Source: Candidatus Aenigmatarchaeota archaeon (GTDB lineage: Archaea > Aenigmatarchaeota > Aenigmatarchaeia > CG10238-14 > SCSR01). Taken from it: a stretch of 64,000 bases of DNA. The translations under genes and the position numbers were made by a program. The DNA is taken from contig JAWBPV010000001.1 of the NCBI GenBank assembly GCA_039000425.1, positions 67,240-131,239 of the forward strand, given 5' to 3'. Of the stretch, positions 2-51,761 are shown one piece after another (the stretch's first letter is position 1; each line of letters begins with the position of its first letter). The notes under the pieces are model-generated. The model did not search any database. It saw only the letters and a program-made list of their open reading frames with translations, and had not been told where the DNA came from.

Positions 2-820
2 GAAACACCCACTATGGAAATATACTTGAAAAAAGAATTCAACAACAGGGAAAAAGCGAGAGAGATCGCTGAGAACATAATAGAGAAGAAAATATCCAAC
101 GTAGCTAAAAAGATATCTATAGACTTAAGCGAAGGCTCAATCGAGATAGAGCCAGAAGATCTGAGGAAAATGGGAAAGATAGCTAAGGTTATAAAGGATA
201 ATTTGAAAGATGTTAAAATCAGGGAGAAAACGAGGAGCATTGTAGTTACACCAAAAGAAGAAGCTGATGTAAAAACACTCCAAGCTTTGAGAGAAAAAAT
301 AATGAATTTACACTTCGAAGGAATAAAGGGAATTAAAAACGCTATCGTGAGAAGAGAAGAAGATAATTGGATAATAAACACTTTAGGTTCAAACCTTGAA
401 GAAATCTTCAAGTTAGAAGAAATTGATGAAACTAGAACTACTTCCAACGATATCTACGAGACTTTTAAAGTGTTAGGGATAGAAGCTGCTAGAAATGTTA
501 TCATAAGGGAGGCTGTAAAAACTTTGAACGAACAAGGTTTAGATGTTGATATAAGACACATACTCCTAGTTGGAGATATTATGACTTGTAGTGGTAGGAT
601 TCAATCTATCGGAAGATATGGAATAGCCGGTTCACAAACATCTATCCTAGCCAGAGCTGCGTTTGAAGAAACAGTTAAACATCTGGTAAGAGCTTCGATA
701 AGGAATGAAACGGACGAATTTAAAGGAATTTTTGAGAATGTGATGATAGGTCAAGTTATACCAGCTGGCACAGGAATGCTTGAGCTTCTAGCTGTTTTCG
801 AGAAGGAGGAAAAGAAATGA
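2..820 (+). CDS. rpoA2: RNA polymerase subunit A'' (Rpo1C), 5'-truncated by the window edge
   Basis: Frame open from nt 2 (ETPTMEIYL...). Motifs VLGIEAARNVII, DIRHILLVGDIMT, ARAAFEET, ENVMIGQVIPAGTG. Confidence 0.95.
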   Translation, partial: ETPTMEIYLKKEFNNREKAREIAENIIEKKISNVAKKISIDLSEGSIEIEPEDLRKMGKIAKVIKDNLKDVKIREKTRSIVVTPKEEADVKTLQALREKIMNLHFEGIKGIKNAIVRREEDNWIINTLGSNLEEIFKLEEIDETRTTSNDIYETFKVLGIEAARNVIIREAVKTLNEQGLDVDIRHILLVGDIMTCSGRIQSIGRYGIAGSQTSILARAAFEETVKHLVRASIRNETDEFKGIFENVMIGQVIPAGTGMLELLAVFEKEEKK

Positions 821-1080
821 ATTTGGAAGAAGAAATACTCGATGCCACTAAAAAAGGTAACATAATACTTGGGTATAAAGAGAGTAGAAAATACATAAAA
901 GTTAACAAAGCAAAGCTCGTTGTTTTGGCCAATAATGCTCCTGAAAAGATAAGAAAGGAAATTGAACATAATGCAAGCATTGCTGGAATAAAAGTTGAGA
1001 TTTTCGATAAAGGTAGCAAAGATTTGGGAATACTTTGCGGTAAACCTTATCCAGTAAGTGTGCTAGTGATCAAATGGTAA
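817..1080 (+). CDS. rpl30e: 50S ribosomal protein L30e
   Basis: AKLVVLANNAP and LGILCGKPYPVSVL; conserved position after rpoA2. Confidence 0.95.
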   Translation: MNLEEEILDATKKGNIILGYKESRKYIKVNKAKLVVLANNAPEKIRKEIEHNASIAGIKVEIFDKGSKDLGILCGKPYPVSVLVIKW

Positions 1081-1490
1081 TTAAATTTGACACTGAAAGC
1101 ATAAGGCTTATGACGATTTTTGAGAATTTGACAGGAGTACAAGTTAGGGATTGTTTAGTTGAAGAAGATACGGTATATTTTCTAGTGGATGAAGAAAAAA
1201 TCGGCATGGCCATAGGCAAAAATGGTAGTGTTGTTAAAAATGTGGAAGCGGCTATTAACAAAACTATAAAACTTTTCGGTTTTTCTGACGATTTGACAAA
1301 ATTTATCAAAAATCTCATACCGAAAGCTACTAACATAAAGATCATGAATAGCGAAGACGGGAAGAAGGTAGAAGTGGTGGTTGAAAAAAGTGAGAAGCCT
1401 TTGGTCATAGGAAGAGAAGGAAAAAATTTAAAAATAATCAAAGAATTACTCAAGAGAAATTATGATGTTAGTGAATTGGTGGTAAGGTGA
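1074..1490 (+). CDS. nusA: Archaeal NusA (two KH domains)
   Basis: KH GxxG loops AIGKNG and VIGREG; position between L30e and S12. Confidence 0.93.
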
Positions 1491-1494
1491 AAAA

Positions 1495-1917
1495 ATGCCA
1501 GGAGAATTTTCAGCTAGAAAGCTTAGAAGAGTGAGGAAGAAGTTCAAATGGAAAGATATACGCTACAAAAGAAGGGTTTTACAATTATGGAAAAAAGATC
1601 CGCTTGAAGGTGCTCCTCAAGCTAGAGGTATAGTTATAGAGAAAAGAGGTGTGGAACAAAGAAAACCTTGTTCTGGCCTAATAAAAGCTGTGAGAGTTCA
1701 ACTCTTGAAAAATAACGTTCAAGTAACTGCACACGTACCTGGTGAAGGTGCTATTGATATAATAAATGAACATGATGAAGTTTTGATAGAAAGTATAGGA
1801 GGGGCTCAAGGCGGTCCTAAAGGAAGCATGTGGGGTATAAAGTATAAGGTGGTTGCAGTCAATGGTGTTGCTTTGAGTGAAATTTTATCTGGGAAAAAGC
1901 AAAAGCCAACAAGGTGA
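1495..1917 (+). CDS. rps12: 30S ribosomal protein S12 (uS12)
   Basis: [31 protein letters not shown]; GGTGA Shine-Dalgarno upstream. Confidence 0.96.
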
Positions 1918-1921
1918 TTAG

Positions 1922-2524
1922 ATGGTTGAGATAAAGTTGTTTGGTAAGTGGAGTTTTGAAGGTGTGGAAGTAAAAGATCCGGGACTAAAGAGATACGTAA
2001 ACTTACAGCCCGTAGTAGTACCAAAAACTGATGGAAGATATGCCAAACAACAATTTCACAAAAGCAAGATGAACATAGTTGAGAGATTCGTCAACAAACT
2101 CAGAGTACCTGGACACAGAGGAAAAAAGCATGTATTAACTTCTGATAGGAATGTTGATAAAACACTAACTCATTACAAAATAGTTGAAGAAGTTTTTGAG
2201 AAAATAGAGAAAATTACTGGAAAAAACCCAATAGCTGTTTTAGTTGGAGCTATAGAAAACGCTGCGTGGAGAGAAGAAATAACAGCTTACCAATTGGGTG
2301 GTATAATTGTCAGAAGAGCTGTAGTTACAAGCCCCCAGAGAAGGGTTGATGTTGCGTTGAGGAATATAGTACAGGCAGCTTATAGAAAAAGTTTTGGTAA
2401 AAAAGTTTCAACAGTTGATGCTTTGGTTGAAGAAATAATCGGTGCTTACAATAACGATCCAAGTAAATCAGAAGCTATAAGGGAGAGGGAAAGGGTTGAA
2501 AGGGAAGCCGAAGGTGCGAGGTAA
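1922..2524 (+). CDS. rps7: 30S ribosomal protein S7 (uS7)
   Basis: IKLFGKW, AIENAAWREE, SPQRRVDVALR. Confidence 0.96.
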   Translation: MVEIKLFGKWSFEGVEVKDPGLKRYVNLQPVVVPKTDGRYAKQQFHKSKMNIVERFVNKLRVPGHRGKKHVLTSDRNVDKTLTHYKIVEEVFEKIEKITGKNPIAVLVGAIENAAWREEITAYQLGGIIVRRAVVTSPQRRVDVALRNIVQAAYRKSFGKKVSTVDALVEEIIGAYNNDPSKSEAIRERERVEREAEGAR

Positions 2525-2696
2525 GAGTATTGGTAGTTTTTTAGTATTGATTTGAAGTTTATATCTATGGTTATGAATTGCTCTTGTAACTTCACTAGCA
2601 TCAAGATTACGGATAAAATCACTAGGTATTTATTTATTTCTATGAGAAAAAACTTTAAAAGAATTGGCTTCTAAAGGATAATTTATTGGTGATATT

Positions 2697-4889
2697 TTGG
2701 CAAAAAAAGAAATGATCGAAAGGATTAAAGAAGTTATGAAAGATCCTGTTAGGATAAGAAACGTTGCCACGAGTAGCCATGTTCATCATGGAAAAACAAC
2801 CCTAACTGACAACTTGATGGCTGGTGCAGGAATGTTAGCGGAAGAGATGGCGGGAAAAGTTATGTATACTTGGTTTGACGAGCAAGAAAGGAGAAGACAA
2901 TTGACGATTTATGGAGCAAACGTTTCCATGGTCCATGAATATGAAGGTAAAGATTATCTCATAAATTTAGTAGATACACCTGGTCATGTAGACTTTGGTG
3001 GTGATGTAACTAGGGCTATGAGAGCTGTTGATGGTACTATAGTCTTAGTCGATGCTGTTGAAGGTATAATGCCGCAAACCGAGACAGTTTTTAGACAAGC
3101 ACTTAGAGAATACGTTAAACCTGTTTTATTTATAAATAAAACTGATAGGTTGATAAAAGAATTGAAACTTTCGCCACAAGAAATGCAAAAGAGGTTTGAA
3201 GAGGTTATAAGAGATGTTAATATATTAATTCAAAAATATGCTCCTCCTGAATTCAAGGATAAATGGTTGGTAAATGTTTCAAACGGTAGTGTGGCTTTTG
3301 GATCTGCTTACAAAAGATGGGCAATTTCTATACCGTTCATGCAAAAAACTGGAACTACTTTTAAGGACATAATCGAATTAACACTTGCTGGAAAAGAGGA
3401 AGAACTTGCCAAGAAAGCTCCTTTACATCAAGTTGTGCTTGATATGATAATAAAACATTTACCAAATCCTCTTGAAGCGCAAAAATACAGGATATTGAAA
3501 ATTTGGAAAGGAGACTTGAATTCAGAAATAGGAAAGCAAATGCTAGCTTGTGACTCAAACGGTAAGCTCGCTGCTATAGTGACAAAAGTTGTTCCCGATC
3601 CTCATGTTGGTTTTGTCGCAACGCTTAGAATTTTTTCTGGAAAAGTTTTTAAGGGAAAGGATGTTTACCTTGTAGGACAACATAAACAAGAAAAGATACA
3701 ACAAGTAGCGGTGTATAAAGGAATATTGAGAATTCCTGTTGAAGAAGTTACAGCTGGCAACATAGCAGCAGTTGTTGGTATTCCTGACGCATTCACAGGA
3801 GAAACAGTTTGTGAACCAGATTCAATCATCGAACCTTTTGAAGAAATAAAACATCTTTTCGAGCCAGTGGTAACTAAAGCGATAGAACCGAAAAATCCGA
3901 TGGATTTGCCAAAACTAGTCGAAGCTCTTAAGAGGATAGGTAGGGAAGATGCTGTATTGCAAGTTAAGATAAATCAAGAGACTGGAGAATACCTTGTTTC
4001 TGGATTAGGCGAACTCCATTTAGAAGCTAAAGTGGAAAATAAACTGAAAGAAATTGGAATTGATGTTGAGATGAGTAAACCGATAGTTGTTTATAGAGAA
4101 ACTATTTTCGGTAAATCTCCAGAAATAGAAGGTAAATCCCCAAATAAACATAACAGATTTTATATAGTTGTAGAACCGCTTGAAGATGGTGTTTATAAAG
4201 CGATGTTAGAAGGTGATATTCCTGGTGAAATTGAATTCAAAGGTAAACACACAGAAATTTTCAGAAAAATTTCACAGAATGGCATGGATTATGATGAAGC
4301 AAAAAATATAATACTAATTCATAACAAGAATGTTTTGATAGATTTAACGAAAGGAATTCAGTTTTTAAACGAAGTGATAGAAATGGTTAAAGAAGCTTTT
4401 AGAGATGTTATGGATGAAGGACCTTTAGCTAGAGAACCTTGTACTAAAGTTAAAGTTAAGCTTGTGGATGCAGAACTTCATGAAGATCCTGTTCATAGAG
4501 GACCTGGTCAAATAATACCAGCAGTTAGATACGCTATAAGAGAAGGAATGCTAAAAGCAGACCCAACCCTACTTGAACCAAAACAAATCATAAGGATAGA
4601 TGTACCCTCAGAGCTTTTAGGTGAAGTTATAAGAGAAGTGGAAAATAGAAGGGGGCAAATACTTGATATGAAAGAAGAAAGAGGAGCTAGTATAGTTATC
4701 GCCAAGATGCCTGTGAGCGATATGTTTGGTTTTGATTCTAGTTTAAAATCTGCAACTTCGGGTAGAGGATTTTACAGTTTAATAGAAACAGTTTTCGAAA
4801 AACTCCCATCAGAGCTAAGAGAAGATGTGATAATAAGTATAAGGAAGAGAAAAGGTTTACCAGAAGAAATGCCAAAACCTGAAACGTAA
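2697..4889 (+). CDS. fusA: Translation elongation factor aEF-2
   Basis: DTPGHVDF, NKTD, GLGELHLE, diphthamide loop HEDPVHRGPGQIIP. TTG start with GGTGA SD. G1 motif is atypical (see findings). Confidence 0.97.
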   Translation: MAKKEMIERIKEVMKDPVRIRNVATSSHVHHGKTTLTDNLMAGAGMLAEEMAGKVMYTWFDEQERRRQLTIYGANVSMVHEYEGKDYLINLVDTPGHVDFGGDVTRAMRAVDGTIVLVDAVEGIMPQTETVFRQALREYVKPVLFINKTDRLIKELKLSPQEMQKRFEEVIRDVNILIQKYAPPEFKDKWLVNVSNGSVAFGSAYKRWAISIPFMQKTGTTFKDIIELTLAGKEEELAKKAPLHQVVLDMIIKHLPNPLEAQKYRILKIWKGDLNSEIGKQMLACDSNGKLAAIVTKVVPDPHVGFVATLRIFSGKVFKGKDVYLVGQHKQEKIQQVAVYKGILRIPVEEVTAGNIAAVVGIPDAFTGETVCEPDSIIEPFEEIKHLFEPVVTKAIEPKNPMDLPKLVEALKRIGREDAVLQVKINQETGEYLVSGLGELHLEAKVENKLKEIGIDVEMSKPIVVYRETIFGKSPEIEGKSPNKHNRFYIVVEPLEDGVYKAMLEGDIPGEIEFKGKHTEIFRKISQNGMDYDEAKNIILIHNKNVLIDLTKGIQFLNEVIEMVKEAFRDVMDEGPLAREPCTKVKVKLVDAELHEDPVHRGPGQIIPAVRYAIREGMLKADPTLLEPKQIIRIDVPSELLGEVIREVENRRGQILDMKEERGASIVIAKMPVSDMFGFDSSLKSATSGRGFYSLIETVFEKLPSELREDVIISIRKRKGLPEEMPKPET

Positions 4890-8371: not shown

Positions 8372-10855
8372 TTGGTGAAACAATTGAAAGAAAAATTGCT
8401 CGTTTTTGATGCTGATTACATTCTTATGGAAGAGAAGCCTGTAATCAGACTTTTTTGCAAGAATTCAGAAGGTAAAACTTTTCTCTTGTTGGATAAAAAT
8501 TTTTTACCTTATTTTTACGCACTTCCCAAAGAAGGAAAGATAGAAGAGATTAAAAAAAAGGTTGAGAATTTAGATTTGAAGAGTTTGAAATTAGGTTATT
8601 TAAAAACAGAAGTTGTTGAAAAATTTTTAGAAGGAAGGAATGTTGAAGTTTTAAAAATCATAATCGATAATCCAAGAAGGTTACCTGAAGTTAGAAAAGA
8701 AATAAAAGAGTGGGAATGTGTAGAAGAAACTTATGAATATGATATAGTTTTCTACAAGCGTTACTTAATAGATAAACAAATTGAACCGATGGGATGGGTA
8801 GAGGTTGAAGGAGAGAGATTGGAAAATAAATGGGAATATCAGGTTGATGTTATAATTGACATCACTTCGATAAAACCTATTGAAGAAGATAGAAAAGTTA
8901 ATTTCAAGGTAGTTGCTTTCGATACAGAATTCGTCGAAGAAAACGGGGAATCAAAGCTGATAATGTTGAGTTTAGTTTCAAGTGATGGTGTTAAAAAAGT
9001 TATAACTTCTAGGTCGTGGAAAAATCAACCTGATTATGTTGAATCTGTCAAAAATGAGAAAGAGATAATAGAGAAATTTTTAGAATTTGTTAAAAAGATT
9101 GATCCGGATTTCTTATGTAGCTATAATGGTGATAATTTTGACTTTCCAAACTTGAAAGAAAGGAGTGAAAAGTTGAAAGTCGGTTTAAAACTCGGAAGAG
9201 ATAATTCTCCTTTACAAATAGTGAGAAGGGGAAGGATAAGTTCAGTTAAAATAAAGGGAAGGATACATATCGATCTTTTCGATTTCGTCGATCACATCCT
9301 TTCCCCTACTCTCAAGAGTGAAATATTAACTTTACATGAAGTGGCTAAAGAGCTCCTTGGAATTGGAAAAAAAGACATGAAATACAAAGACATCCTCGAG
9401 ATATGGAAGGGGGAAGAAGAAATGGAAAAATTAACGGAATATAGCCTTCACGATTCCATATTAACTTTTAAATTATCTGAACTCCTCTTGCCACAAATTT
9501 TTGCGATAAGTAAGTTAACTGGCCTTTTGCCTTTCGACGCATGTAGGAATACTTATTCTCAATTAGTAGAAGCTTTTTTCATGAAAAAAGCTTTTACAGA
9601 CAATTTAATAATACCAAATAGACCGAAAGCAGAAGAGATAGAAAAAAGGAGGATGGTGCCGGCTTATAAAGGAGCTATAGTGATTGAACCCAAAAAGGGA
9701 ATTCATTCCAATATACTCGTCTTTGACTTCAGGAGTTTGTATCCAACTATAATAGTTACCCATAACATCAGCCCTGAAACTCTAAATTGTGAGCACGGTG
9801 AATGTAAAAGGAAGAATTCTGTTCCTGAAACAAAACTTCATTTTTGTCTGAAGAAGAAAGGTTTCATACCAAAACATCTAGAAGAATTGATAAAAACGAG
9901 ACAAGAGGTGAAGAAGATCATGAAGAAAATTGAAAAAACTTCTGAAGAATGGAAAAGATTGGACAATCTACAATACGCTTTAAAAATAATAGCAAATGCA
10001 TCGTATGGATACTTTGGTTTTGTTGGTGCACGATGGTATAAAAGGGAGTGTGGGGCTTCTACCGCGGCTTTCGGAAGATACTACATAACTCATGTAGTAA
10101 AAGAGGCTGAGAAATTTGGTCTTGATGTGATTTATGGTGACACAGATTCATTGATGGTCATATATCCAAAAGAAAGTTCAAGAGAAGAATTGTTAGAAAT
10201 TGGTGAAAAATTCGTGAAAAAAATAAACGAACAATTACCAGGAATAATAGAATTAGAATTCAGAGATCTTTACGAGGGGGGTATTTTTGTTGCAAGAGAA
10301 AAAGGTGAAGTTGGTGCTAAGAAAAGATACGCTTTGCTAGATTATGAAGGAAAGATTGAAATAAGGGGTTATGAAGCTGTAAGAAGAGACTGGTGTGAAT
10401 TGAGTAAAAAAATACAAAGAGATGTTTTGGTAACAGTCCTTAAAGAGAAAAATCCAGAAAAAGCTGTTCAGATTGTTAGAGAAACTATCAAAAAACTTAA
10501 GGAGGGGAAAATTCCGTTAGAAGAGCTAACGATATTCGAACAAATAACTCGTCCGTTGTCTCAATATGAACAAATTGGTCCACATGTGAAAGCAGCACAA
10601 AAGGCTAGGGCAAGGGGTAGGATTGTTGGTGAAGGCGCTGTAATAGGGTTTGTAATAGTTAAAGGTTTTGGGTCCATTTCCGACAGGGCCGAACCGGTTG
10701 AAGATGTTAAACCTGGGGAATACGATCCAGATTACTACATACATCACCAGGTGATTCCGGCAAGTATGCGTGTTTTAAAAGCCCTTGGGATAACAAAAGA
10801 GGAAATTTTAAGTGAGAAGAAACAGAAGAAAATATTAAGCTTTTTTGAGAGATGA
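8372..10855 (+). CDS. polB: Family B DNA polymerase (PolB3-like) with intact exonuclease and polymerase motifs
   Basis: ExoI FDTE, ExoII YNGDNFD, ExoIII YSLHD; DFRSLYP, KIIANASYGY, YGDTDS; C-terminal PIP box QKKILSFF. Confidence 0.96.
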   Translation: MVKQLKEKLLVFDADYILMEEKPVIRLFCKNSEGKTFLLLDKNFLPYFYALPKEGKIEEIKKKVENLDLKSLKLGYLKTEVVEKFLEGRNVEVLKIIIDNPRRLPEVRKEIKEWECVEETYEYDIVFYKRYLIDKQIEPMGWVEVEGERLENKWEYQVDVIIDITSIKPIEEDRKVNFKVVAFDTEFVEENGESKLIMLSLVSSDGVKKVITSRSWKNQPDYVESVKNEKEIIEKFLEFVKKIDPDFLCSYNGDNFDFPNLKERSEKLKVGLKLGRDNSPLQIVRRGRISSVKIKGRIHIDLFDFVDHILSPTLKSEILTLHEVAKELLGIGKKDMKYKDILEIWKGEEEMEKLTEYSLHDSILTFKLSELLLPQIFAISKLTGLLPFDACRNTYSQLVEAFFMKKAFTDNLIIPNRPKAEEIEKRRMVPAYKGAIVIEPKKGIHSNILVFDFRSLYPTIIVTHNISPETLNCEHGECKRKNSVPETKLHFCLKKKGFIPKHLEELIKTRQEVKKIMKKIEKTSEEWKRLDNLQYALKIIANASYGYFGFVGARWYKRECGASTAAFGRYYITHVVKEAEKFGLDVIYGDTDSLMVIYPKESSREELLEIGEKFVKKINEQLPGIIELEFRDLYEGGIFVAREKGEVGAKKRYALLDYEGKIEIRGYEAVRRDWCELSKKIQRDVLVTVLKEKNPEKAVQIVRETIKKLKEGKIPLEELTIFEQITRPLSQYEQIGPHVKAAQKARARGRIVGEGAVIGFVIVKGFGSISDRAEPVEDVKPGEYDPDYYIHHQVIPASMRVLKALGITKEEILSEKKQKKILSFFER

Positions 10856-42709: not shown

Positions 42710-43240
42710 ATGAGGTGTTTCGTTGGATATCTTTTAAATGAAGATGAAAAAGTGGGGATTTTAAAATTGTTGGAAAAAATGGAAAAGTGGCCGATGAAAT
42801 GTAAGTTTGTGGAAAAAGAAAACTTACATTTGAATTTTTCTTTCCTTGGAGAAATTGGTGAAAATGATATAAAAAAAATTTCTGAGAAAATCGATTCTGT
42901 TGGTAAAAAATTCAAAAAGTTTGAGGTTGAAATAGATGGGTTGAAAATGATACCTAATGATAAGTACGTAAGAGTTTTGGCGCTCTCACTCGCTTACAAT
43001 GAAGATTTGGAAAAAATTTTTAAAGAAATAGTAAAAGAGATAGGTGGTGATTCCAAACCGGCACATATAACTTTATGTAGAGTTAAAGCTGTAACTAACA
43101 AATTAGAATTGAAAAAGAAAGTTATGGAAGAGGGAAGATTTCACGGAAAAATAACAATAAGGAAAATCCAATTGATTAAGAGTGAATTGAAGCCTACTGG
43201 TCCAGTTTATTCCGTAATTCATGAAGCTGAATTGTTTTGA
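42710..43240 (+). CDS. thpR: 2H-phosphoesterase (RNA 2',3'-cyclic phosphodiesterase, ThpR-like)
   Basis: MRCFV, ENLHLNFSFLGEI, PAHITLCRVK, SELKPTGPVY. Confidence 0.88.
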   Translation: MRCFVGYLLNEDEKVGILKLLEKMEKWPMKCKFVEKENLHLNFSFLGEIGENDIKKISEKIDSVGKKFKKFEVEIDGLKMIPNDKYVRVLALSLAYNEDLEKIFKEIVKEIGGDSKPAHITLCRVKAVTNKLELKKKVMEEGRFHGKITIRKIQLIKSELKPTGPVYSVIHEAELF

Positions 43241-44097
43241 TTTTTTTCTATGAAATCTTTCAGTTCTTTTACCCTAGTTTCTATTTTATACTGGTCTATA
43301 GGTATCCTCTCCCTTAAAGCCTTGAATATTTCTTTCTTGGTAAGTTCTTCTACTTCCTTATCAGCTGGTGCTCTTGCTATATAGTCCACTTCGGCAACTT
43401 GCAACATTTCCTTGATTATTAAATCTCCTCCCCTATCACCATCGACGAATAACGTTGTAATTTTCTCTTTCGTGAGTTTAATTATTTGTTCTGGAATCTT
43501 CACCCCTTCCAACGCTATCACATTTTTAATACCATTTTTCAACAAATTGAGTACATCGGCTCTGCCTTCAACTATTATTATTTCATCAGATATTTCTACT
43601 TCCGGCCCGGCTGGAAGGCCGTAATAATCTCTTATCTGAGCAGTCTTCACGCTTTCTTTTATCATGCTGGTTAGAGTGGAAGTTGGTGGTATTTCTTCGG
43701 TTATTAATTTTCCAAGGATATCTTTTGCCCTGTTCAGCATCATCTCCCTTTTCATCACCCTAACATCCTTGACAGATAAAACTTTAAAAGAAGCTGTGTA
43801 TGGACCTATCCTTTCTATTGTTTCTAAAGATGCCGCTATTAAAGCAGTTTCTGAACTATCTAGACTTGAAGGTAAGAAAATTTTGCCAAAAGTTTTTCCT
43901 TCTGAATTGTTCAACTCAACATCTATCCTACCAATTCTACCTGTTCTTTGAAGTTCCCTCAAATCTAAATCTTGACCCAACAAACCTTCTGTTTGACCGA
44001 ATATAGCTCCTATGACATCGGGTTTTTCCACTATACCGTCTGCTTTGAATTCTGCTTCTATTAAATATTTTACAGTAGATTGAGCTAATTTTCCCAT
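43219..44097 (-). CDS. dnaG: Archaeal DnaG (compact, 292 aa)
   Basis: DVIGAIFGQTEGLLG, VEGRADV, DGDRGG, EVEELT. ATG at 44097 with GGAGATGA SD. Confidence 0.94.
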   Translation of the reverse strand: MGKLAQSTVKYLIEAEFKADGIVEKPDVIGAIFGQTEGLLGQDLDLRELQRTGRIGRIDVELNNSEGKTFGKIFLPSSLDSSETALIAASLETIERIGPYTASFKVLSVKDVRVMKREMMLNRAKDILGKLITEEIPPTSTLTSMIKESVKTAQIRDYYGLPAGPEVEISDEIIIVEGRADVLNLLKNGIKNVIALEGVKIPEQIIKLTKEKITTLFVDGDRGGDLIIKEMLQVAEVDYIARAPADKEVEELTKKEIFKALRERIPIDQYKIETRVKELKDFIEKNQNNSAS

Positions 44098-44458
44098 TTG
44101 AATCATCTCCAATTAATTTCGTTATTGAATTGAGTTCTTCAATCTTGTGAATTTTAAATGATTTGAATTTACATCTAACCAAATGATTCACCTTAATTTT
44201 ATAACGTGAAATCATTTCGGTTAGATATGAAGCCATGCTTTCTCCTTCAGGATCAAAATCTGTTAAAATAGCAACTTCTGAAGGATTTGATGATACCACT
44301 TCTTCAACCACTCTCTCCAAAGGTTTCCCACCTATTTTTACTATTTTTTTAAAACCAAATTTTTTAAGGGCTAAAAAATCCTTTTCACCTTCTACTACAA
44401 CCAAAACTTGATCTTTTTCCATTTTCTCCAAATTTTCGATAACGGAAGGAGAAAGCAT
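43937..44458 (-). CDS. Small TOPRIM-domain protein
   Basis: VVVEGEKD and ILTDFDPEGE; 3' end overlaps dnaG. Confidence 0.85.
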   Translation of the reverse strand: MLSPSVIENLEKMEKDQVLVVVEGEKDFLALKKFGFKKIVKIGGKPLERVVEEVVSSNPSEVAILTDFDPEGESMASYLTEMISRYKIKVNHLVRCKFKSFKIHKIEELNSITKLIGDDSNGKISSIYCKIFNRSRIQSRRYSGKTRCHRSYIRSNRRFVGSRFRFEGTSKNR

Positions 44459-45837: not shown

Positions 45838-46161
45838 TTAATTTTTTAAAAATTCTTCCAATTTTTCACCACTATCTCTCAACACTTTCCTACTCGGTTT
45901 TAAAATCCTTATATTTCCGTAACCAAAATCAACTACTAAGTAAAAAGGAAATCCTTCTAATTTCTCGGAAATTTTACCGTAAAAATAAAGAGATTTTTTT
46001 CTCGTAGATTTGACTTGTAAGAGTAAACATTTTCCATTTTTTAAACAAACCAAATCTGCTTCACCTAGGCTTGCTCCGGCCCTAACTACTTTCCACCCAT
46101 ACTTTTCAAAAATTTGTCTGATTTTTCTTTCAACCCTGTAGCCTTTTCTCTTCACGAGCAT
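45838..46161 (-). CDS. hjc: Holliday junction resolvase Hjc-like nuclease
   Basis: KGYRVER, GWKVVRAGAS, ADLV, QVKS (PD-(D/E)xK variant). Confidence 0.82.
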   Translation of the reverse strand: MLVKRKGYRVERKIRQIFEKYGWKVVRAGASLGEADLVCLKNGKCLLLQVKSTRKKSLYFYGKISEKLEGFPFYLVVDFGYGNIRILKPSRKVLRDSGEKLEEFLKN

Positions 46162-46199: not shown

Positions 46200-46874
46200 A
46201 TGAAGATTTTAGTGATTAGTGATATTCACAATGATATCGAAAACTTGATGGAATATCTAGATAAAATCCAAAACCTTGATTTTGACGTTATAGTTATTCC
46301 AGGGGACTTCACCGATTTGCCTCCCAAAGGATTTTCATCGATAGAAATAACCAAATTGATCATAGAAGAAATAAAAACACTTAAAAAACCGATGTTAAGC
46401 GTACCTGGAAATTGGGATAGAGATATCATTGAACTTTTAGAAGAAGAAGATATAAGCATTCATGGACGTGGAAAAATCATTGATGAAATAGGTTTCTATG
46501 GTTTCGGTGGTGCAAGAACGCCGTTCGATACTTTTTATGAACCTGGCGAAAGAGAAATCGAAGAAGGACTTAAAAAAGGGTTTGAAGAAGTTAAAAAAGC
46601 TAAGGTAAAAGTACAAGTAACACATATGCCACCTTTTAGAACTAAATTAGATGTAACGTATACAGGTGCACATGTTGGCTCTGAAGCTGTGAGGAAAGCC
46701 ATTGAAAATTACAAACCTGTTCTTGCTATAAGTGCACATATCCATGAAGCTAGAGGCTTAGACGAAATTAACGGGACTAAATTGATTAACGCTGGTAGGT
46801 TTCCAGAAGGTTATTGTGGTTTTGTTGAAATTGTAAATAATAAAGTTGAAACTAGAATCCTCAACTTAATTTAA
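46200..46874 (+). CDS. Calcineurin-like metallophosphoesterase
   Basis: SDIH, GDFTD, PGNWD, THMPP, AHIHE. Confidence 0.92.
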   Translation: MKILVISDIHNDIENLMEYLDKIQNLDFDVIVIPGDFTDLPPKGFSSIEITKLIIEEIKTLKKPMLSVPGNWDRDIIELLEEEDISIHGRGKIIDEIGFYGFGGARTPFDTFYEPGEREIEEGLKKGFEEVKKAKVKVQVTHMPPFRTKLDVTYTGAHVGSEAVRKAIENYKPVLAISAHIHEARGLDEINGTKLINAGRFPEGYCGFVEIVNNKVETRILNLI

Positions 46875-46962: not shown

Positions 46963-47322
46963 ATGAATAGGCAAGACTCGCTTATAAATATTTCTGTACA
47001 ACAGAATATAGAATTGAAGAAAGAGCTCGCTTCAATTTTTTTGAATTTTGATGTTATCATGATAAAAATTTTACAAAAATTTTATTTCAACGGTGAAAAT
47101 TTTCCTAACGATGTGAATTCTTATTATCTTCAACAACTTTTCTCTGAGTTAAGAAGTGAGGGGTTACAAATCAATGTTGAAACTTTGAGAAAAAGATTGG
47201 AAAGTTTGGTTAAATTAGGTTTGATCGATAAAGTGAACACTTATCCAAGGATATATGCACCTGTAAGGGATGTGGAAAAAGTAAGAAATTTGTTGATAAG
47301 GATAAAACAAGTTTTTTTGTGA
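46963..47322 (+). CDS. Winged-helix protein
   Basis: INVETLRKRLESLVKLGLIDKVNTYPRIY. Confidence 0.75.
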   Translation: MNRQDSLINISVQQNIELKKELASIFLNFDVIMIKILQKFYFNGENFPNDVNSYYLQQLFSELRSEGLQINVETLRKRLESLVKLGLIDKVNTYPRIYAPVRDVEKVRNLLIRIKQVFL

Positions 47323-47624: not shown

Positions 47625-47852
47625 ATGCCAAGAAGACCTTTTGGAAAATTTTTTGAATTAGCCCTTCTAAACTGCTTAGATCCAAAAATTCCAAGGACTG
47701 TAGAATTTATACGTAAATCTTTGGCCGAAAAATTAGATAGACCTGGTTTATCATGGCATACTGTTAACAAATATTTGTTATTATTAAGAGATGCTAAAAA
47801 GGTGGAGGAAATCCGTGTCGGGAAAGTAACAACTTATAAGTTGAAAACTTGA
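47625..47852 (+). CDS. Small winged-helix protein
   Basis: LSWHTVNKYLLLLRDAKKVEEIRVGKVTTY helix plus wing. Confidence 0.72.
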   Translation: MPRRPFGKFFELALLNCLDPKIPRTVEFIRKSLAEKLDRPGLSWHTVNKYLLLLRDAKKVEEIRVGKVTTYKLKT

Positions 47853-47889: not shown

Positions 47890-49056
47890 TTGGATTTTAT
47901 GGATAAAAGAGAAATAGTGGAATTTTTCATGAAAAAAGGTATAATTCTAAAACCAGATGTACTTGAATATCTAGTTAACAAGAAAGGAGAAATCAAACAG
48001 ATTTTGGAAAAAATTGATAATGTAGAAAAAATTCCACCTTTAATTTCAATCGAATTTTTAAAGAATTTATTAGAAGAGAAAAAAGTAGACGTGGAAGAAG
48101 TTAAGAAAGAAATTTTAGATAAGAAAATTATATCAGTTGATGATGTTTCTAGTGTTTTAATTCAAAGATATGAAAAGATTAAATCTTTTTTCACTTTTAG
48201 AATGGATTTGGTCAACCTCATTTCCATTAATAAAATAAATGAGAAGATGAAGAAATTTTCTCTAATAGTTATGGTGAGAGAGATAGATGAAATGGAGAAT
48301 AAAATAGTTGTTGAAGATTTAACAGGAGAGATTATTTTTCACGTGAAGAATAAGGGGATTATGGATTATTTAATTGAAGATGAAGTTGTCGGTGTTGTTT
48401 GTGAAAGGAATGATGGAAGAATAGAAGTTGTTAATATCTTATGGCCTGATATACCTTTGAAAAGGAACATAGGAAAGTTGGAAGAAGATGTTTTTTGCCT
48501 GTTTTGTAATTTCACGATTTTTGAAGAAAATTATGAGAAAATTTTGGATAAGTTAAAAGAAATGAGTTTTGATAAGTTGTGTATTTTTCTTTTTTCTGAT
48601 GTTGATGTAAATGAAAAATATATAGATAAATTTAAAAGTTTCCTACCTTTTAATTCATCCCTAATTTTAATAACAAAAAATAGAAATTTTAAGGAAGAAG
48701 ATGTGTTAAGCTTTTCACCTCCTGTTTTCTTAAGGTTGGAGAAAAAAATCAACTTACTTCTTTCAACAGGAAACGACTTAGAATTTTACAAGAGTAAATG
48801 GGGGAAAGGAGATTTGGTCATGTTGAACTTACTTAAAAAAAGGCATTTAAATCCAATTTTCAAAACACAGAATTTGGCTTTGGAGAATAATTTCATTATC
48901 GACCCAATACCAGACATTTTTGTCGTTGGACCCTTTGATTCACCTTTTGTTTTGAACTACAAAGGAACAACTTTGATATCTTGTGGGACTTCAGAAAAAA
49001 TATTTTGGATTGTAAATCTTAAAACACGAGAAAATTTAAAAATTGATTTGATTTAA
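47890..49056 (+). CDS. Inactivated DP1-like (PolD small subunit / B-subunit) homolog
   Basis: N-terminal IVEFFMKKGIILKPDVLEYL, QRYEKI, OB fold VEDLTG..DEVVGV..WPDIP, LLKKRHLNP, IIDPIPDIFVVG, YKGTTLISCG. Metal ligands absent. Start may be ATG 47899. Confidence 0.82.
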   Translation: MDFMDKREIVEFFMKKGIILKPDVLEYLVNKKGEIKQILEKIDNVEKIPPLISIEFLKNLLEEKKVDVEEVKKEILDKKIISVDDVSSVLIQRYEKIKSFFTFRMDLVNLISINKINEKMKKFSLIVMVREIDEMENKIVVEDLTGEIIFHVKNKGIMDYLIEDEVVGVVCERNDGRIEVVNILWPDIPLKRNIGKLEEDVFCLFCNFTIFEENYEKILDKLKEMSFDKLCIFLFSDVDVNEKYIDKFKSFLPFNSSLILITKNRNFKEEDVLSFSPPVFLRLEKKINLLLSTGNDLEFYKSKWGKGDLVMLNLLKKRHLNPIFKTQNLALENNFIIDPIPDIFVVGPFDSPFVLNYKGTTLISCGTSEKIFWIVNLKTRENLKIDLI

Positions 49057-49064
49057 GAATAAAC

Positions 49065-51761
49065 ATGGAAGTTATATTTCAGCTTCTAGATGTTGATTAT
49101 ATTTTTGTTGAGAATCAACCGATCATAAGGCTTCTCGGTAAAACAGAAGATGGGAAAACAGTTTGTGTGTTTTACAAAGGTTTTTTCCCATATTTTTACG
49201 TATTACCAAAAACTGGGATGATGGAAGATGTTATAGAAGAATTGAAGAAAAATTTTCCGAACGATTTGAAGAATATAGAAGAAGTTGATAAATTCTTACC
49301 AATAGGTTTTAAGGAAGAAAAGGTGAAAATGTTAAAAGTTACTTTGAAAGACCCTTCTAGAACAGCTACAATCAGAGAATACTTGAGGAGAAAAAATTTT
49401 GTGGAAGAAATCTTCGAGGCAGATATACTTTTTAAATACAGGTTCATGGCTGATTTTTCACTTTTCGGTATGAGTTGGTATAAAGTTCAGGGAAGGCCTA
49501 CTCGTACAGAAACTATTAAAGCAGATATAATGTTGGATGTCGATAAAATAGATCCCGTGGATAAAATGGAAAGCGCACCACTGAAGTATTTAGCTTTAGA
49601 CATAGAGATTGTCTCTGAAGAAGAGATAAATGCAGAGAAAGTGCCAATAGCTTTAATCAGTTTATCTTTCTTCCCAGCTTATAATGGAAAGAACAGCATG
49701 GTTTTAGTTGCTAAGAACAATATAAGAAAAATAAATCATGATATCTTGACGTTTAAAAATGAAAAAGAGATGCTTGAAAAATTTTTAGATATAATTGAGA
49801 ATTTTGATCCCGATATAATCACAGGATACAACATCAACGATTTTGATTTACCCTATATTAACCAAAGGTTGAAAGTGAATAAACTAAAAAGAACTATAGG
49901 GAGATGTAAAGAGAAACAATTGAGTTCAAAGAGCTTGGGAGAAAATAGGTATAAAAATTCTGTTTTCGGTAGGATTATAGTTGATCCTTATTGGATGATA
50001 AAAGAAATGAGTGGAAGAGGGTTCTTCATAGGATTAAAAAGATTTGGTCTAGGAGATGTTTCTTCTTATTTACTTGGTGAAGATAAGATTGAATTTTCAG
50101 TTAAAGATATGGTGGTGGCTTGGAAAGGTGATGAAGCAGAAATGGAGAAATTTATAGAATATGCTAGAAGAGATTCTGAGCTTGTGTTAAAACTGTTGTT
50201 AGAAAAACACCTTTTAGATAAATACATAGGAATTTCAAAAGTTTGTGGGTTGTTGTTGCAAGATTGTTTGGATACAGGGGAAGCAGCTAAAGTAGAAAAT
50301 TTATTGTTGAGAGAATTCAACAAAGAAGGTTTTGTATTGCCATGTAAACCTACAGAAAAAGAGATAGCTAGGAGGAAAGCCGAAAAAGACGCAAAAGGTT
50401 TTAAAGGTGCTTTAGTTTTAGACCCAGAAATAGGTTTACACACAACTTGTGTTTGTTATCTTGATGTGGCTAGCATGTATCCTTCCATTTTTATTTCTTT
50501 CAACATTTGTCCAACAACTCTTTTGCTAGAAAAGAGAAACGATTTAGAGATAATAACAACACCTTTTGGGACTTCTTTCGTTTCACCAAGAATAAGAAAA
50601 GGTATAATACCTAGAATGGTTGAAAGACTTATAAAAGAGAGGAATGTTGTTAAAAATGAGATGAAGAATGAGAAAGATCTTGTAAGGAAGAGGGCTCTAG
50701 ATGCATATCAAGAAGGTTTGAAAAGGATAGCAAACGCTACCTATGGTTATACTGGATTCTTGTTAGGTAGGATTTATGTTTTAGATATAGCAAACGCTAT
50801 AACGAGTTGCGGTAGATATTACATTCAAGAAACTAAAAGATTGGTAGAAACCCACACACCATACAAAGTGATTTACGGTGATACAGATTCTGTGATGATA
50901 AAAACCGACACCCAAGATATAGATAAAGCCATAGAGATAGGAATCGAAATAGCAAATTTCTTGAACGAAAAATTTGAAGGTAAGTTGAGGTTGAAAATCG
51001 AGAACATTTTTAAAACACTCTTGATCTTAACGAAGAAAAGATATGCTGGATGGAGTTTTGAGAAGATAGATTCTCAATATAAAGATGAGATTGTGATGAA
51101 AGGGATTGAAACTGTTAGAAGGGATTGGTGTGATTTAGTTAGCGAAACCCAAGAAACTGTATTAAATATTTTACTGAAAGAACAAAATCCGAAGAAAGCT
51201 TTTTCTTACTTCAAAGAAATAGTACAAAAGCTACAAAATGATCAAATACCACTTGAGAAACTTGTTATAATTAAAGGGGTATCGAAAAGACCTGAAGAAT
51301 ATAAAGGAGTTCAACCTCATGTAGAGCTGATAAAGAAGATGAAAAAAAGAGGGGAGAAAGAAATTCCATCTATTGGTGATAGAGTTGGGTTTGTGATAAT
51401 CAAAGGACCACAACTTATTTCAGAAAGAGCGGAAGATCCTGAATATGTGAAAAAACATGGTTTGAAAATAGATTCTAAATATTATATAGAAAGTCAACTT
51501 TTACCACCTTTGGAAAGAGTTTTTGAAGCGATAGGTGTTGCTAAAGCCGAGTTAGTTGGATTGGGAAGACAAACTCTTTTGGCAGAAGTAGTTAACAACA
51601 ATAAGATAAAAGGAGATGTGTTGAGTGATGTTGAAAATGTTGTTTGTGTTAGATGTAATAAGAATTTCAGAAGGGTTCCTTTAGTTGGAAGATGCACTTC
51701 TTGTGGTGGTGAACTAGAATTTTCTTTCAATGGTTCAAGGTCAAAATATTTTAGTGTTTAA
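49065..51761 (+). CDS. polB: Family B DNA polymerase with a DP2-like C-terminal zinc finger
   Basis: LDIE, YNINDFD, YARRD; DVASMYP, KRIANATYGY, YGDTDS; C-terminal CVRCNKNFRRVPLVGRCTSCGGEL. Confidence 0.95.
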   Translation: MEVIFQLLDVDYIFVENQPIIRLLGKTEDGKTVCVFYKGFFPYFYVLPKTGMMEDVIEELKKNFPNDLKNIEEVDKFLPIGFKEEKVKMLKVTLKDPSRTATIREYLRRKNFVEEIFEADILFKYRFMADFSLFGMSWYKVQGRPTRTETIKADIMLDVDKIDPVDKMESAPLKYLALDIEIVSEEEINAEKVPIALISLSFFPAYNGKNSMVLVAKNNIRKINHDILTFKNEKEMLEKFLDIIENFDPDIITGYNINDFDLPYINQRLKVNKLKRTIGRCKEKQLSSKSLGENRYKNSVFGRIIVDPYWMIKEMSGRGFFIGLKRFGLGDVSSYLLGEDKIEFSVKDMVVAWKGDEAEMEKFIEYARRDSELVLKLLLEKHLLDKYIGISKVCGLLLQDCLDTGEAAKVENLLLREFNKEGFVLPCKPTEKEIARRKAEKDAKGFKGALVLDPEIGLHTTCVCYLDVASMYPSIFISFNICPTTLLLEKRNDLEIITTPFGTSFVSPRIRKGIIPRMVERLIKERNVVKNEMKNEKDLVRKRALDAYQEGLKRIANATYGYTGFLLGRIYVLDIANAITSCGRYYIQETKRLVETHTPYKVIYGDTDSVMIKTDTQDIDKAIEIGIEIANFLNEKFEGKLRLKIENIFKTLLILTKKRYAGWSFEKIDSQYKDEIVMKGIETVRRDWCDLVSETQETVLNILLKEQNPKKAFSYFKEIVQKLQNDQIPLEKLVIIKGVSKRPEEYKGVQPHVELIKKMKKRGEKEIPSIGDRVGFVIIKGPQLISERAEDPEYVKKHGLKIDSKYYIESQLLPPLERVFEAIGVAKAELVGLGRQTLLAEVVNNNKIKGDVLSDVENVVCVRCNKNFRRVPLVGRCTSCGGELEFSFNGSRSKYFSV

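Follow-up and report, generated by a model that had tools for sequence, protein, structure and literature searches.

A family-B DNA polymerase with a DP2-derived zinc finger and a linked, inactivated DP1-like partner as the probable main replicase of a PolD-less Aenigmatarchaeota archaeon

Family-B DNA polymerases (PolBs) with a C-terminal metal-binding tail were described for the Aenigmarchaeota by Kazlauskas et al. in 2020 (Nucleic Acids Research, PMC7544198). In the main text of that study these enzymes belong to the B6 group and bear either one ('B6-aenigma1') or two metal-binding motifs; the one-motif tail is most similar to Zn-III of DP2, the catalytic subunit of archaeal PolD, DP2 itself is missing in most of the phylum's genomes, and the 'Aenigma' group of DP1, the small subunit of PolD, is inactive and co-occurs with the tailed polymerase. 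The authors concluded that the tailed PolB had replaced DP2, and that eukaryote-like changes could predate eukaryotes, in archaea. The main text of a second paper (Nature Ecology & Evolution 2025, PMC12680538) reports, from AlphaFold3 models and yeast two-hybrid (Y2H) assays, that DP1 binds the PolB bearing a C-terminal domain (CTD) in both Aenigmatarchaeota and Baldrarchaeia, with no DP1 binding for PolBs that lack a CTD. Here we describe another member of this published system, of a kind already known since 2020 and with its binding tested in 2025: a DP1-like gene and a tailed PolB gene lying side by side in a stretch of 64,000 nucleotides (nt; hereafter 'the window') from a Candidatus Aenigmatarchaeota archaeon (assembly GCA_039000425.1, contig JAWBPV010000001.1, positions 67,240 to 131,239 of the forward strand).

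The two open reading frames (ORFs) share a strand and are separated by 8 nt; both are present at the coordinates and in the frames given by an earlier reading of the same DNA, referred to below as the first-pass annotation. The public gene call for the DP1-like protein is 385 aa, which fits a start at ATG 47899. For both proteins, the nearest homologues that bear a name come from Candidatus Aenigmatarchaeota. The features of the pair are as follows.

47890..49056, + strand: gene for the DP1-like, exonuclease-dead 'B-subunit' (388 aa from TTG; ORF scan)
47890..48075, + strand: N-terminal helical domain of the DP1-like protein, residues 1-62, four helices (AlphaFold2 model, NCBIfam alignment)
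48247..48444, + strand: OB fold of the DP1-like protein, residues ~120-185 (strands 122-184 in the model; aligns to the OB region of solved DP1)
48487..49053, + strand: degenerate calcineurin-like phosphoesterase domain, residues ~200-388 (five motifs lost; LKKRHLNP and PDIF kept)
49065..51761, + strand: gene for the PolB (898 aa; Pfam and NCBIfam matches, alignment)
51645..51704, + strand: Cys4 zinc-finger module C861-C880 with its RRxP loop, from DP2 Zn-III (profile matches, alignment)
51705..51758, + strand: last 18 PolB residues, past the zinc finger, which touch the DP1-like protein in the complex model

Beginning with the polymerase, we see matches to PF00136 (E 1.4e-117) and PF03104 (E 4.6e-35) in Pfam, and a catalytic core as intact as the first-pass annotation had claimed: in an alignment of 42 relatives the residues of ExoI (D179/E181), ExoII (N256/F260/D261) and ExoIII (Y366/D370) are invariant, as are those of polymerase motifs A (D467/Y472), B (K553/N557/Y560/G561) and C (D606/T607/D608). 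The tail also reads as annotated, its zinc finger starting from Cys861 (codon at nt 51645); C861, C864, C877 and C880 are invariant in 42/42 relatives, F886 is likewise invariant, and G882 and E883 are nearly so. The assignment of this finger to DP2 is borne out by the C-terminal DP2 models, which residues 858-897 match at 1.6e-6 (NF011302), 2.3e-6 (NF003103) and 4.7e-6 (TIGR00354), and by the solved PolD DP2 chains (6knb_B residues 1117-1166, E 1.8e-5; 6hms_B residues 1109-1158, E 7.7e-5); these are the sole significant matches among solved-structure sequences, the first unrelated one appearing only at E 0.47. DP2 genes from within the phylum match PolB residues 847-896 at 40-41% identity.

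Saying this, 'DP2-type' holds for the Zn-III-like module and not for the whole domain. The polymerase stops 18 residues past its last Cys where DP2 runs ~100 further (chain lengths 1324 and 1270), so that the tail is a zinc finger without the helical bundle. Its four cysteines are the only ones in the last 95 residues of the protein, and the CysA and CysB motifs with a three-helix bundle that make up a eukaryotic CTD of the Pol alpha/epsilon type (main text of PMC7544198) are not found as a set; with a single zinc module and neither CysA nor bundle, 'eukaryote-like' describes the architecture and not a full eukaryotic CTD.

To place the pair among its relatives, we read 48 loci (one being that of the window) in 26 families of the phylum (numbered f1, f2 and so on; the query belongs to f1), with 46 DP1-family proteins among them. 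All 42 PolB tails in these loci have four cysteines, arranged as CxxC...CxxC in 23 and as CxxC...CxC in 19. Five tailed PolBs are much longer, at 1309-1723 aa (loci L021, L030, L051, L053 and L055, from genomes G119, G064, G106, G022 and G116); four of these have an interrupted DTDS motif, database relatives of such length bear intein/LAGLIDADG domains (PF14528, PF14890), and these long forms probably carry inteins.

The identity of the upstream protein is less apparent from single-sequence searches. Against Pfam it gives nothing relevant above the cut-off (DUF1919, at 0.0013, falls under it), and the DP1 models of NCBIfam match over residues 4-205 (NF003118, 1.5e-27) and 304-349 (NF003116, 2.2e-6) with scores far under their curated cut-offs (for NF003118, 96.8 bits vs 445). 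As a single sequence it finds the PDB only weakly, at 3.4e-4, its C-terminal part aligning to solved DP1 with GHVH opposite GPFD. A profile built from 30 relatives, by contrast with that single sequence, matches solved DP1 at 4.7e-38 (6knb_A) and 3e-33 (5ihe_A). The AlphaFold2 model is confident (predicted local distance difference test, pLDDT, 89.5; predicted template-modelling score, pTM, 0.84), and in Foldseek its best match is P. abyssi DP1 (E 7.8e-22, TMq 0.66-0.68), followed by human Pol delta p50 (2.7e-17), Pol epsilon B (9.6e-15), yeast Pol zeta and human Pol alpha B (1.1e-13), the matches spanning ~400 aligned columns. Profile and fold together settle the protein as a homologue of DP1 and the B-subunits, as the first-pass annotation had proposed.

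Moving along the model from its N-terminus, there are four helices (6-15, 22-30, 32-44 and 54-62), with the NCBIfam DP1 alignment beginning at residue 4 (position 3 of the NCBIfam model), and then the OB fold and the calcineurin-like phosphoesterase fold. The scaffold and replaced motifs named earlier all lie where they were said to: RYEK at 93, CNF at 206, SDVD at 236, TKN at 262, KKRHL at 316, PDIF at 341, GPFD at 347 and YKG at 357.

An active DP1 phosphoesterase carries the motifs DxH, GDxxD, GNH(D/E), H and GHxH. We anchored the corresponding columns by alignment to the canonical DP1s of f11, the sole sampled family still with PolD, in which they read SDxHxGS, GDxxDG, GNHD, YHG and SGHLH. 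The query has CNF, SDVD, TKN, TG and GPFD in these columns, with no GNH, DxH or GHxH pattern; one Asp does align with motif II, and close relatives do not conserve it. All five motifs are thus lost, which upholds the earlier claim against in-phylum references. The GNHD histidine corresponds to H451 of P. abyssi (GNAD in 6hms_A vs GNHD in 5ihe_A), reported as the proton donor, the H451A change abolishing proofreading with the metals undisturbed (Raia et al. 2019, PMC6355029). Having neither this histidine nor the metal ligands, the query cannot work as any known kind of phosphoesterase.

Read from the aligned motifs across the phylum, the decay of DP1 is staged. All four DP2-linked DP1s (three from f11 and one on contig 64 of genome G091) have all five motifs, and GNH is present in these 4/4 vs 0/42 of the proteins linked to a tailed PolB. 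Eight of those 42, namely one f1 genome and all sampled members of f15, f20 and f27, keep DxH and GHxH and also align GD and the motif-IV His; their motif III reads PGNMD, PGNID or PGELD, and in f15, f20 and f27 the catalytic His is replaced by Met, Ile, Leu or Arg. The remaining 34 have lost most or all of the ligands, many being shortened to 272-345 aa. The series runs from canonical (f11) through ligands kept (f15, f20, f27) and mixed (f1) to erased (most other families); f1 holds both states, partly kept and erased, so that the last step to erasure was taken more than once. Both LKKRHLxP and PDI(I/F) survive in every DP1 of the loci read, and the short forms still align to the C-terminal DP1 profile.

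The first-pass annotation had suggested a PolB-B-subunit heterodimer, and modelling of the DP1-like protein (30-row alignment) together with PolB residues 811-898 (42-row alignment) gives a complex that passes its controls. It scores 0.79 (runs of 0.79, 0.78 and 0.81) vs 0.01 for the best of three controls, with contact agreement of at least 91% and a partner pLDDT of at least 68; the pass mark is reached by 58/80 solved complexes and 2/110 mismatched pairs, counts that are rough given the custom alignments used. The PolB tail is predicted to fit into the OB/phosphoesterase groove, contributing the RRxP loop of the zinc finger (R869-G875) together with residues 883-886 and 894-898, and meeting the RYEK helix (78-94), the OB fold (128-147 and 163-164) and residues 324-330, just past KKRHLNP. 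The predicted interface uses the same elements as that of PolD, where the Zn-III loop with its KxRRxP docks on DP1 in the groove between these two domains (as described in PMC6355029).

Compared with archaeal PolD (P. abyssi 6HMS/6T8H, T. kodakarensis 6KNB), the pair shares the DP1 fold, with its N-terminal, OB and phosphoesterase domains, and, in prediction, the docking of an RRxP-bearing Zn-III loop at the OB/phosphoesterase groove; it differs in having a PolB in place of the double-psi-barrel DP2 as catalytic subunit, an exonuclease-dead DP1, and no helical bundle in the CTD. With eukaryotic Pol alpha, delta, epsilon and zeta (4Y97, 5VBN, 6TNY) it has in common a PolB catalytic subunit that does the proofreading and bears a C-terminal metal module, and a DP1-type B-subunit that is inactivated, the eukaryotic B-subunits being strong fold matches of the DP1-like protein; unlike them it has one Cys4 module and no bundle rather than CysA, CysB and a helical bundle, and shows no sign of further eukaryote-type accessory subunits. 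The main text of PMC12680538 gives the PolB3 of Baldrarchaeia a full DP2-like CTD, where the PolB here has the short form; as nearest to eukaryotic PolBs, Kazlauskas et al. (PMC7544198) name B6 and the 2025 paper favours Baldrarchaeia. From B6-aenigma1 we see no difference in kind: the single Cys motif is nearest DP2 Zn-III, the origin is in the Aenigmatarchaeota, DP2 is absent and DP1 is inactive. The published exemplar, OIN85950, is not among the ten homologue clusters that we looked up.

The pairing of the two genes is near-constant across the phylum, as becomes apparent in a sample of 151 genomes. With a single-sequence query the DP1-like gene is found in at least 121 of these, a lower bound, as this search missed it in 30; a family hidden Markov model (HMM) recovered a DP1-like ORF beside PolB in 7/7 of the missed genomes that were fetched (G001, G039, G042, G019, G069, G007 and G115). 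At two further loci, G065 is cut by the contig end and the family HMM found no DP1-like ORF at the PolB locus of G116. The PolB C-terminal region is found in 148/151 genomes. Taking the best listed match per genome, both genes are listed in 111, ten genomes with a DP1 match (G056, G046, G073 and seven of f11) having no strong tail match listed. The two lie on the same contig in 103/111 and on different contigs in 8/111, and 97 of the 103 same-contig pairs are within 4.5 kb: 78 with DP1 upstream on the same strand (median 2431 nt from DP1 match to tail, the length of the PolB body), 18 on opposite strands, and one, in G118 (L013, family f27), with PolB directly upstream of DP1. In this last case the called frames, PolB at 691-3438 and DP1 at 3395-4603, overlap by 44 nt. 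The other six pairs are more than 4.5 kb apart, some with intein-bearing PolBs. Operon conservation among relatives, one of the checks proposed for this locus, is thus as the reading of the pair as a unit would have it.

A separate, active PolD would have undercut that reading, and neither of its subunits is found. The genome bin (1.70 Mb, 91 contigs; 91% complete, with 3.2% contamination by marker genes) yields to the DP2 model TIGR00354 the PolB tail alone, at 31 bits vs a cut-off of 702, and no second DP1-like gene is found in this 91%-complete genome, which holds one copy only. Three genomes of the same genus measure 0.6-0.7 Mb; the larger bin here has one DP1-like gene and one tailed PolB.

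Across the phylum, DP2 is above its family cut-off in 7/151 genomes, which are all seven of f11. Five of these f11 genomes were searched for PolB; the best match is 31-35% identical to ours and stops short of the tail, its frame being 762-777 aa in the four whole matches, and the sole tail-like match is the genome's own DP2. PolD and the tailed PolB thus stand as alternatives to each other in this phylum. The main text of PMC12680538 states that both of its lineages lack DP2; the f11 genomes, which keep DP2 and canonical DP1 in 7/7 cases, agree instead with the 'most' of Kazlauskas et al. One f1 genome, G091, has a short DP1 and a tailed PolB and, in addition, a 3058 bp contig (contig 64, L012) with a canonical DP1, all five motifs included, beside the N-terminal 570 model positions of DP2; the contig may be mis-binned, or else the lineage still holds both systems.

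Taken as a whole, we think it very probable that the PolB with its DP2-derived zinc finger, partnered by an inactivated DP1 scaffold, is the main replicase of this PolD-less archaeon. In such an enzyme the 898-aa PolB would do both the synthesis and the 3'-5' proofreading, its last 38 residues being a single Cys4 finger that would descend from the Zn-III module of DP2. The upstream protein, probably co-transcribed with it, would descend from DP1 and, though dead as a nuclease, would be retained as a scaffold, with the R869-G875 loop and the C-terminal residues of PolB docking between its OB and phosphoesterase domains; this would mirror DP2 on DP1 as well as the CTDs of eukaryotic Pol alpha and epsilon on their B-subunits. 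The N-terminal domain of the DP1-like protein would most likely link the enzyme with GINS and the CMG helicase. A four-helix DP1N of T. kodakarensis is reported to bind Gins51C, tying PolD to CMG, in a manner conserved with Dpb2 of Pol epsilon (PMC9023282); given the four N-terminal helices here, the NCBIfam match starting at residue 4 and a GINS-family gene in the genome (contig C3), this helicase tether is the most likely role for the DP1-like protein to have retained.

Several observations weigh against this assignment. PF04042 (DNA_pol_E_B) is unmatched by the DP1-like protein at E<=1, and genome-wide, although some of its database relatives do have it, and the likeness of its N-terminal domain to DP1N comes from one NCBIfam alignment and a count of helices. 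The helical bundle, which in PolD forms part of the contact between DP1 and DP2, is missing from the PolB tail, and the main text of PMC12680538 describes the Aenigmatarchaeota CTD as degenerate, shorter and different in predicted structure. Because complexes of this type have already been solved, the pass of our complex model may reflect memory of the PolD and Pol alpha/epsilon CTD-B-subunit structures, and the model may be best taken as a likeness that supports binding, short of showing it; of the 27 predicted DP1 interface residues, seven coincide with one of the 61 positions that are invariant or nearly so, a modest enrichment. The genome also encodes two further PolBs (window 8372-10852, + strand, and contig C37 9413-10474), so that the role of main replicase for the tailed one is something we infer. 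The first of these (827 aa) has a DTD motif; its last 100 residues contain no Cys, and its first 300 give no ExoI match to the simple pattern D[IVLMF]E. Finally, identity of the DP1-like protein to genomes of the same genus is 52-54% vs ~75-79% for PolB and 74-75% for its phosphoesterase neighbour (see below), and in some families it is only 272-300 aa; such fast divergence and shortening would fit a weakening of constraint on it.

These last points are also those that would be expected were the DP1-like gene a decaying relic of a lost PolD, with no PolB partner, the zinc finger contacting DNA, primase or PCNA instead. To faster divergence than its neighbours, an erased active site and a length of 272-345 aa in many families can be added the Y2H binding of primase by the DP2 CTD in other archaea, given in the main text of PMC12680538, and the position of Zn-III next to the nascent duplex in PolD, given in PMC6355029. 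A relic would not, however, be expected to keep an intact frame in 42 loci from 24 families (G116 having none and G065 being truncated), nor its tight linkage to PolB, nor 23 invariant columns that include E142, D143, G146 and D164 of the predicted groove. The confident fold, the model of the complex with its controls and the published two-hybrid result for Aenigmatarchaeota likewise point to a working partner, and we consider the relic explanation improbable.

Less probable still is that the DP1-like protein remains active through a non-canonical site, giving a two-nuclease polymerase like PolD with no inert B-subunit. The phosphoesterase fold is kept, and eight tail-linked relatives still have DxH, GHxH, GD and the motif-IV His; the query and its genus, however, are without DxH, GNH and GHxH, the motif II Asp is unconserved in close relatives, and no tail-linked member keeps the histidine whose loss leaves P. 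abyssi DP1 proofreading-deficient. To an assembly or binning artefact, such as a chimeric contig, behind the PolB-zinc-finger fusion or the gene pair (a concern of the first-pass annotation also, prompted here by the size of the bin against its genus and by the finding in the main text of PMC12680538 that the two-motif 'B6-aenigma2' PolBs came from Baldrarchaeia contigs wrongly binned with Aenigmatarchaeota metagenome-assembled genomes) we give next to no credence, with the four-Cys architecture in 42/42 PolBs from independent assemblies, the pair adjacent in 97/103 same-contig cases, nearest homologues in the Aenigmatarchaeota at up to 79% identity, and a PolB of the one-motif aenigma1 type rather than the disputed aenigma2.

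Having preferred the PolB with an inert DP1-like scaffold as the replicase, we turn to its neighbours, which comprise three further genes on the same strand.

46200..46874, + strand: PDE224, an intact stand-alone metallophosphoesterase and conserved neighbour of the DP1-like gene (PF00149, 2.5e-19)
46963..47322, + strand: orf119, a small protein lying between PDE224 and DP1 and assigned to no known family (position conserved)
47625..47852, + strand: orf75, a small protein directly upstream of DP1 (position conserved)

PDE224 (224 aa) lies ~1 kb upstream of the DP1-like gene, has weak similarity to the YfcE family and matches one solved protein, 2yvt, of unknown function. At E<=1e-15 it is found in 95/151 genomes, including 30/31 of f1, 10/10 of f2, 12/12 of f13, 7/7 of f14 and 12/14 of f19; at the same threshold it is not found in PolD-keeping f11 (0/7), in f7 (0/3), f8 (0/7), f16 (0/4), f17 (0/11), f18 (0/2) or f22 (0/4), or in f24 and f25, each sampled by one genome. 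Of the 81 genomes with listed matches for both, 63 have PDE224 at most 5 kb from DP1 (a count that omits secondary PDE224 matches and genomes without a DP1 match). Among these 63 it is upstream of DP1 on the same strand in 41 (f1, f2, f3, f5, f6), directly downstream at 50 nt in eight (f13), where PolB lies apart on the other strand, divergent in 13 (f14, f19), and otherwise arranged in one (f9). The 18 unlinked copies comprise eight weak matches in f15, f20 and f27; of the remainder, one in an f19 genome lies beyond 5 kb and the others sit on separate contigs from DP1 (f1, f3, f14, f19). In families whose DP1 loci were read, linked PDE224 occurs only where the DP1 ligands are lost or, in f1, partly lost; it is not found in f11, with its canonical DP1, nor in f15, f20 and f27, where the ligands are kept.

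The small proteins are similarly placed from locus to locus. For orf119 there are weak winged-helix hints in Pfam (E 0.049-0.14) and phmmer matches at the same position in eight other loci (f1, f3, f5, f6); for orf75 a weak hint of DUF7342 (E 0.022) and phmmer matches between PDE224 and DP1 in seven other loci, with two copies in G024 and G056. Both ORFs, and a gene resembling the Hjc Holliday junction resolvase on the far side of PDE224, are conserved in f1, f3, f5 and f6. Replication and repair genes abound in this neighbourhood: of the two ORFs at 43219-44112 (- strand) and 45838-46161 (- strand), one resembles, judged by eye from its translation, a DnaG-type TOPRIM protein, and the other is the Hjc-like gene (NF040854, 6e-7, under its cut-off), which stays adjoining PDE224 in f1 and f6 loci.

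Whether this means anything for the polymerase is a separate matter. That the replicase module is larger than the published pair, with PDE224 and one or two small proteins beside the dead DP1 in at least four gene-order arrangements, strikes us as quite doubtful; were it so, PDE224 and the small proteins could be accessory subunits, or a nuclease acting in trans, of a multi-subunit PolB holoenzyme. The conserved neighbourhood may be plain synteny among relatives. Two further ideas did not hold up: PDE224 as the split-off phosphoesterase domain of DP1 was set aside, as its matches are generic to Metallophos and the DP1 model reaches only E 0.077 over 33 residues, and compensation by PDE224 for the lost DP1 nuclease is unsupported as a rule, since f7, f8, f16, f17, f18, f22, f24 and f25, in whose sampled genomes no PDE224 is found at E<=1e-15, all have decayed DP1s; it is therefore not a general substitute.

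Relative to what has been published, the first-pass annotation was right to make novelty hang on the linked inactive B-subunit and to ask for a check; that subunit, however, was already described for Aenigmarchaeota in 2020 and its interaction detected by Y2H in 2025. The words 'operon', 'adjacent' and 'neighbo(u)r' do not occur in the main text of PMC7544198, and adjacency of the DP1/PolB pair is mentioned in neither that main text nor that of PMC12680538; the supplements (for the 2020 paper, Figs S15-S16 and Tables S4-S7) may cover it. The same holds for the 97/103 linkage, the alternation of PolD and tailed PolB, the staged decay and the linked PDE224, which are not found in either main text and may be held in the supplements. 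Gene linkage, staged decay and the linked PDE224 may thus be additions to the 2020 study. Our literature search returned no further paper on a DP1/tailed-PolB complex and none on a linked phosphoesterase.

What we add is accordingly modest and descriptive, drawn from the 151-genome sample: the alternation of PolD and tailed PolB, the near-constant operon, the staged decay of DP1 and the PDE224 neighbour. The PDE224 linkage is the one lead for which we found no counterpart in print, though the supplements of both papers may show the gene neighbourhood, and it makes PDE224 a candidate extra component of the replicase; if the module does prove larger than the pair, the staged decay of DP1 would offer a natural series that replays how the B-subunits of eukaryotes came to be inert. 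The combination of PolB, DP2-derived zinc finger and inert DP1 is the architecture from which eukaryotic Pol alpha, delta and epsilon have been proposed to originate, and an archaeal lineage with the same swap is, as was already pointed out in 2020, a living model of that transition, whose graded DP1 series lends itself to asking at what point, and for what reason, a B-subunit turns into a pure scaffold.

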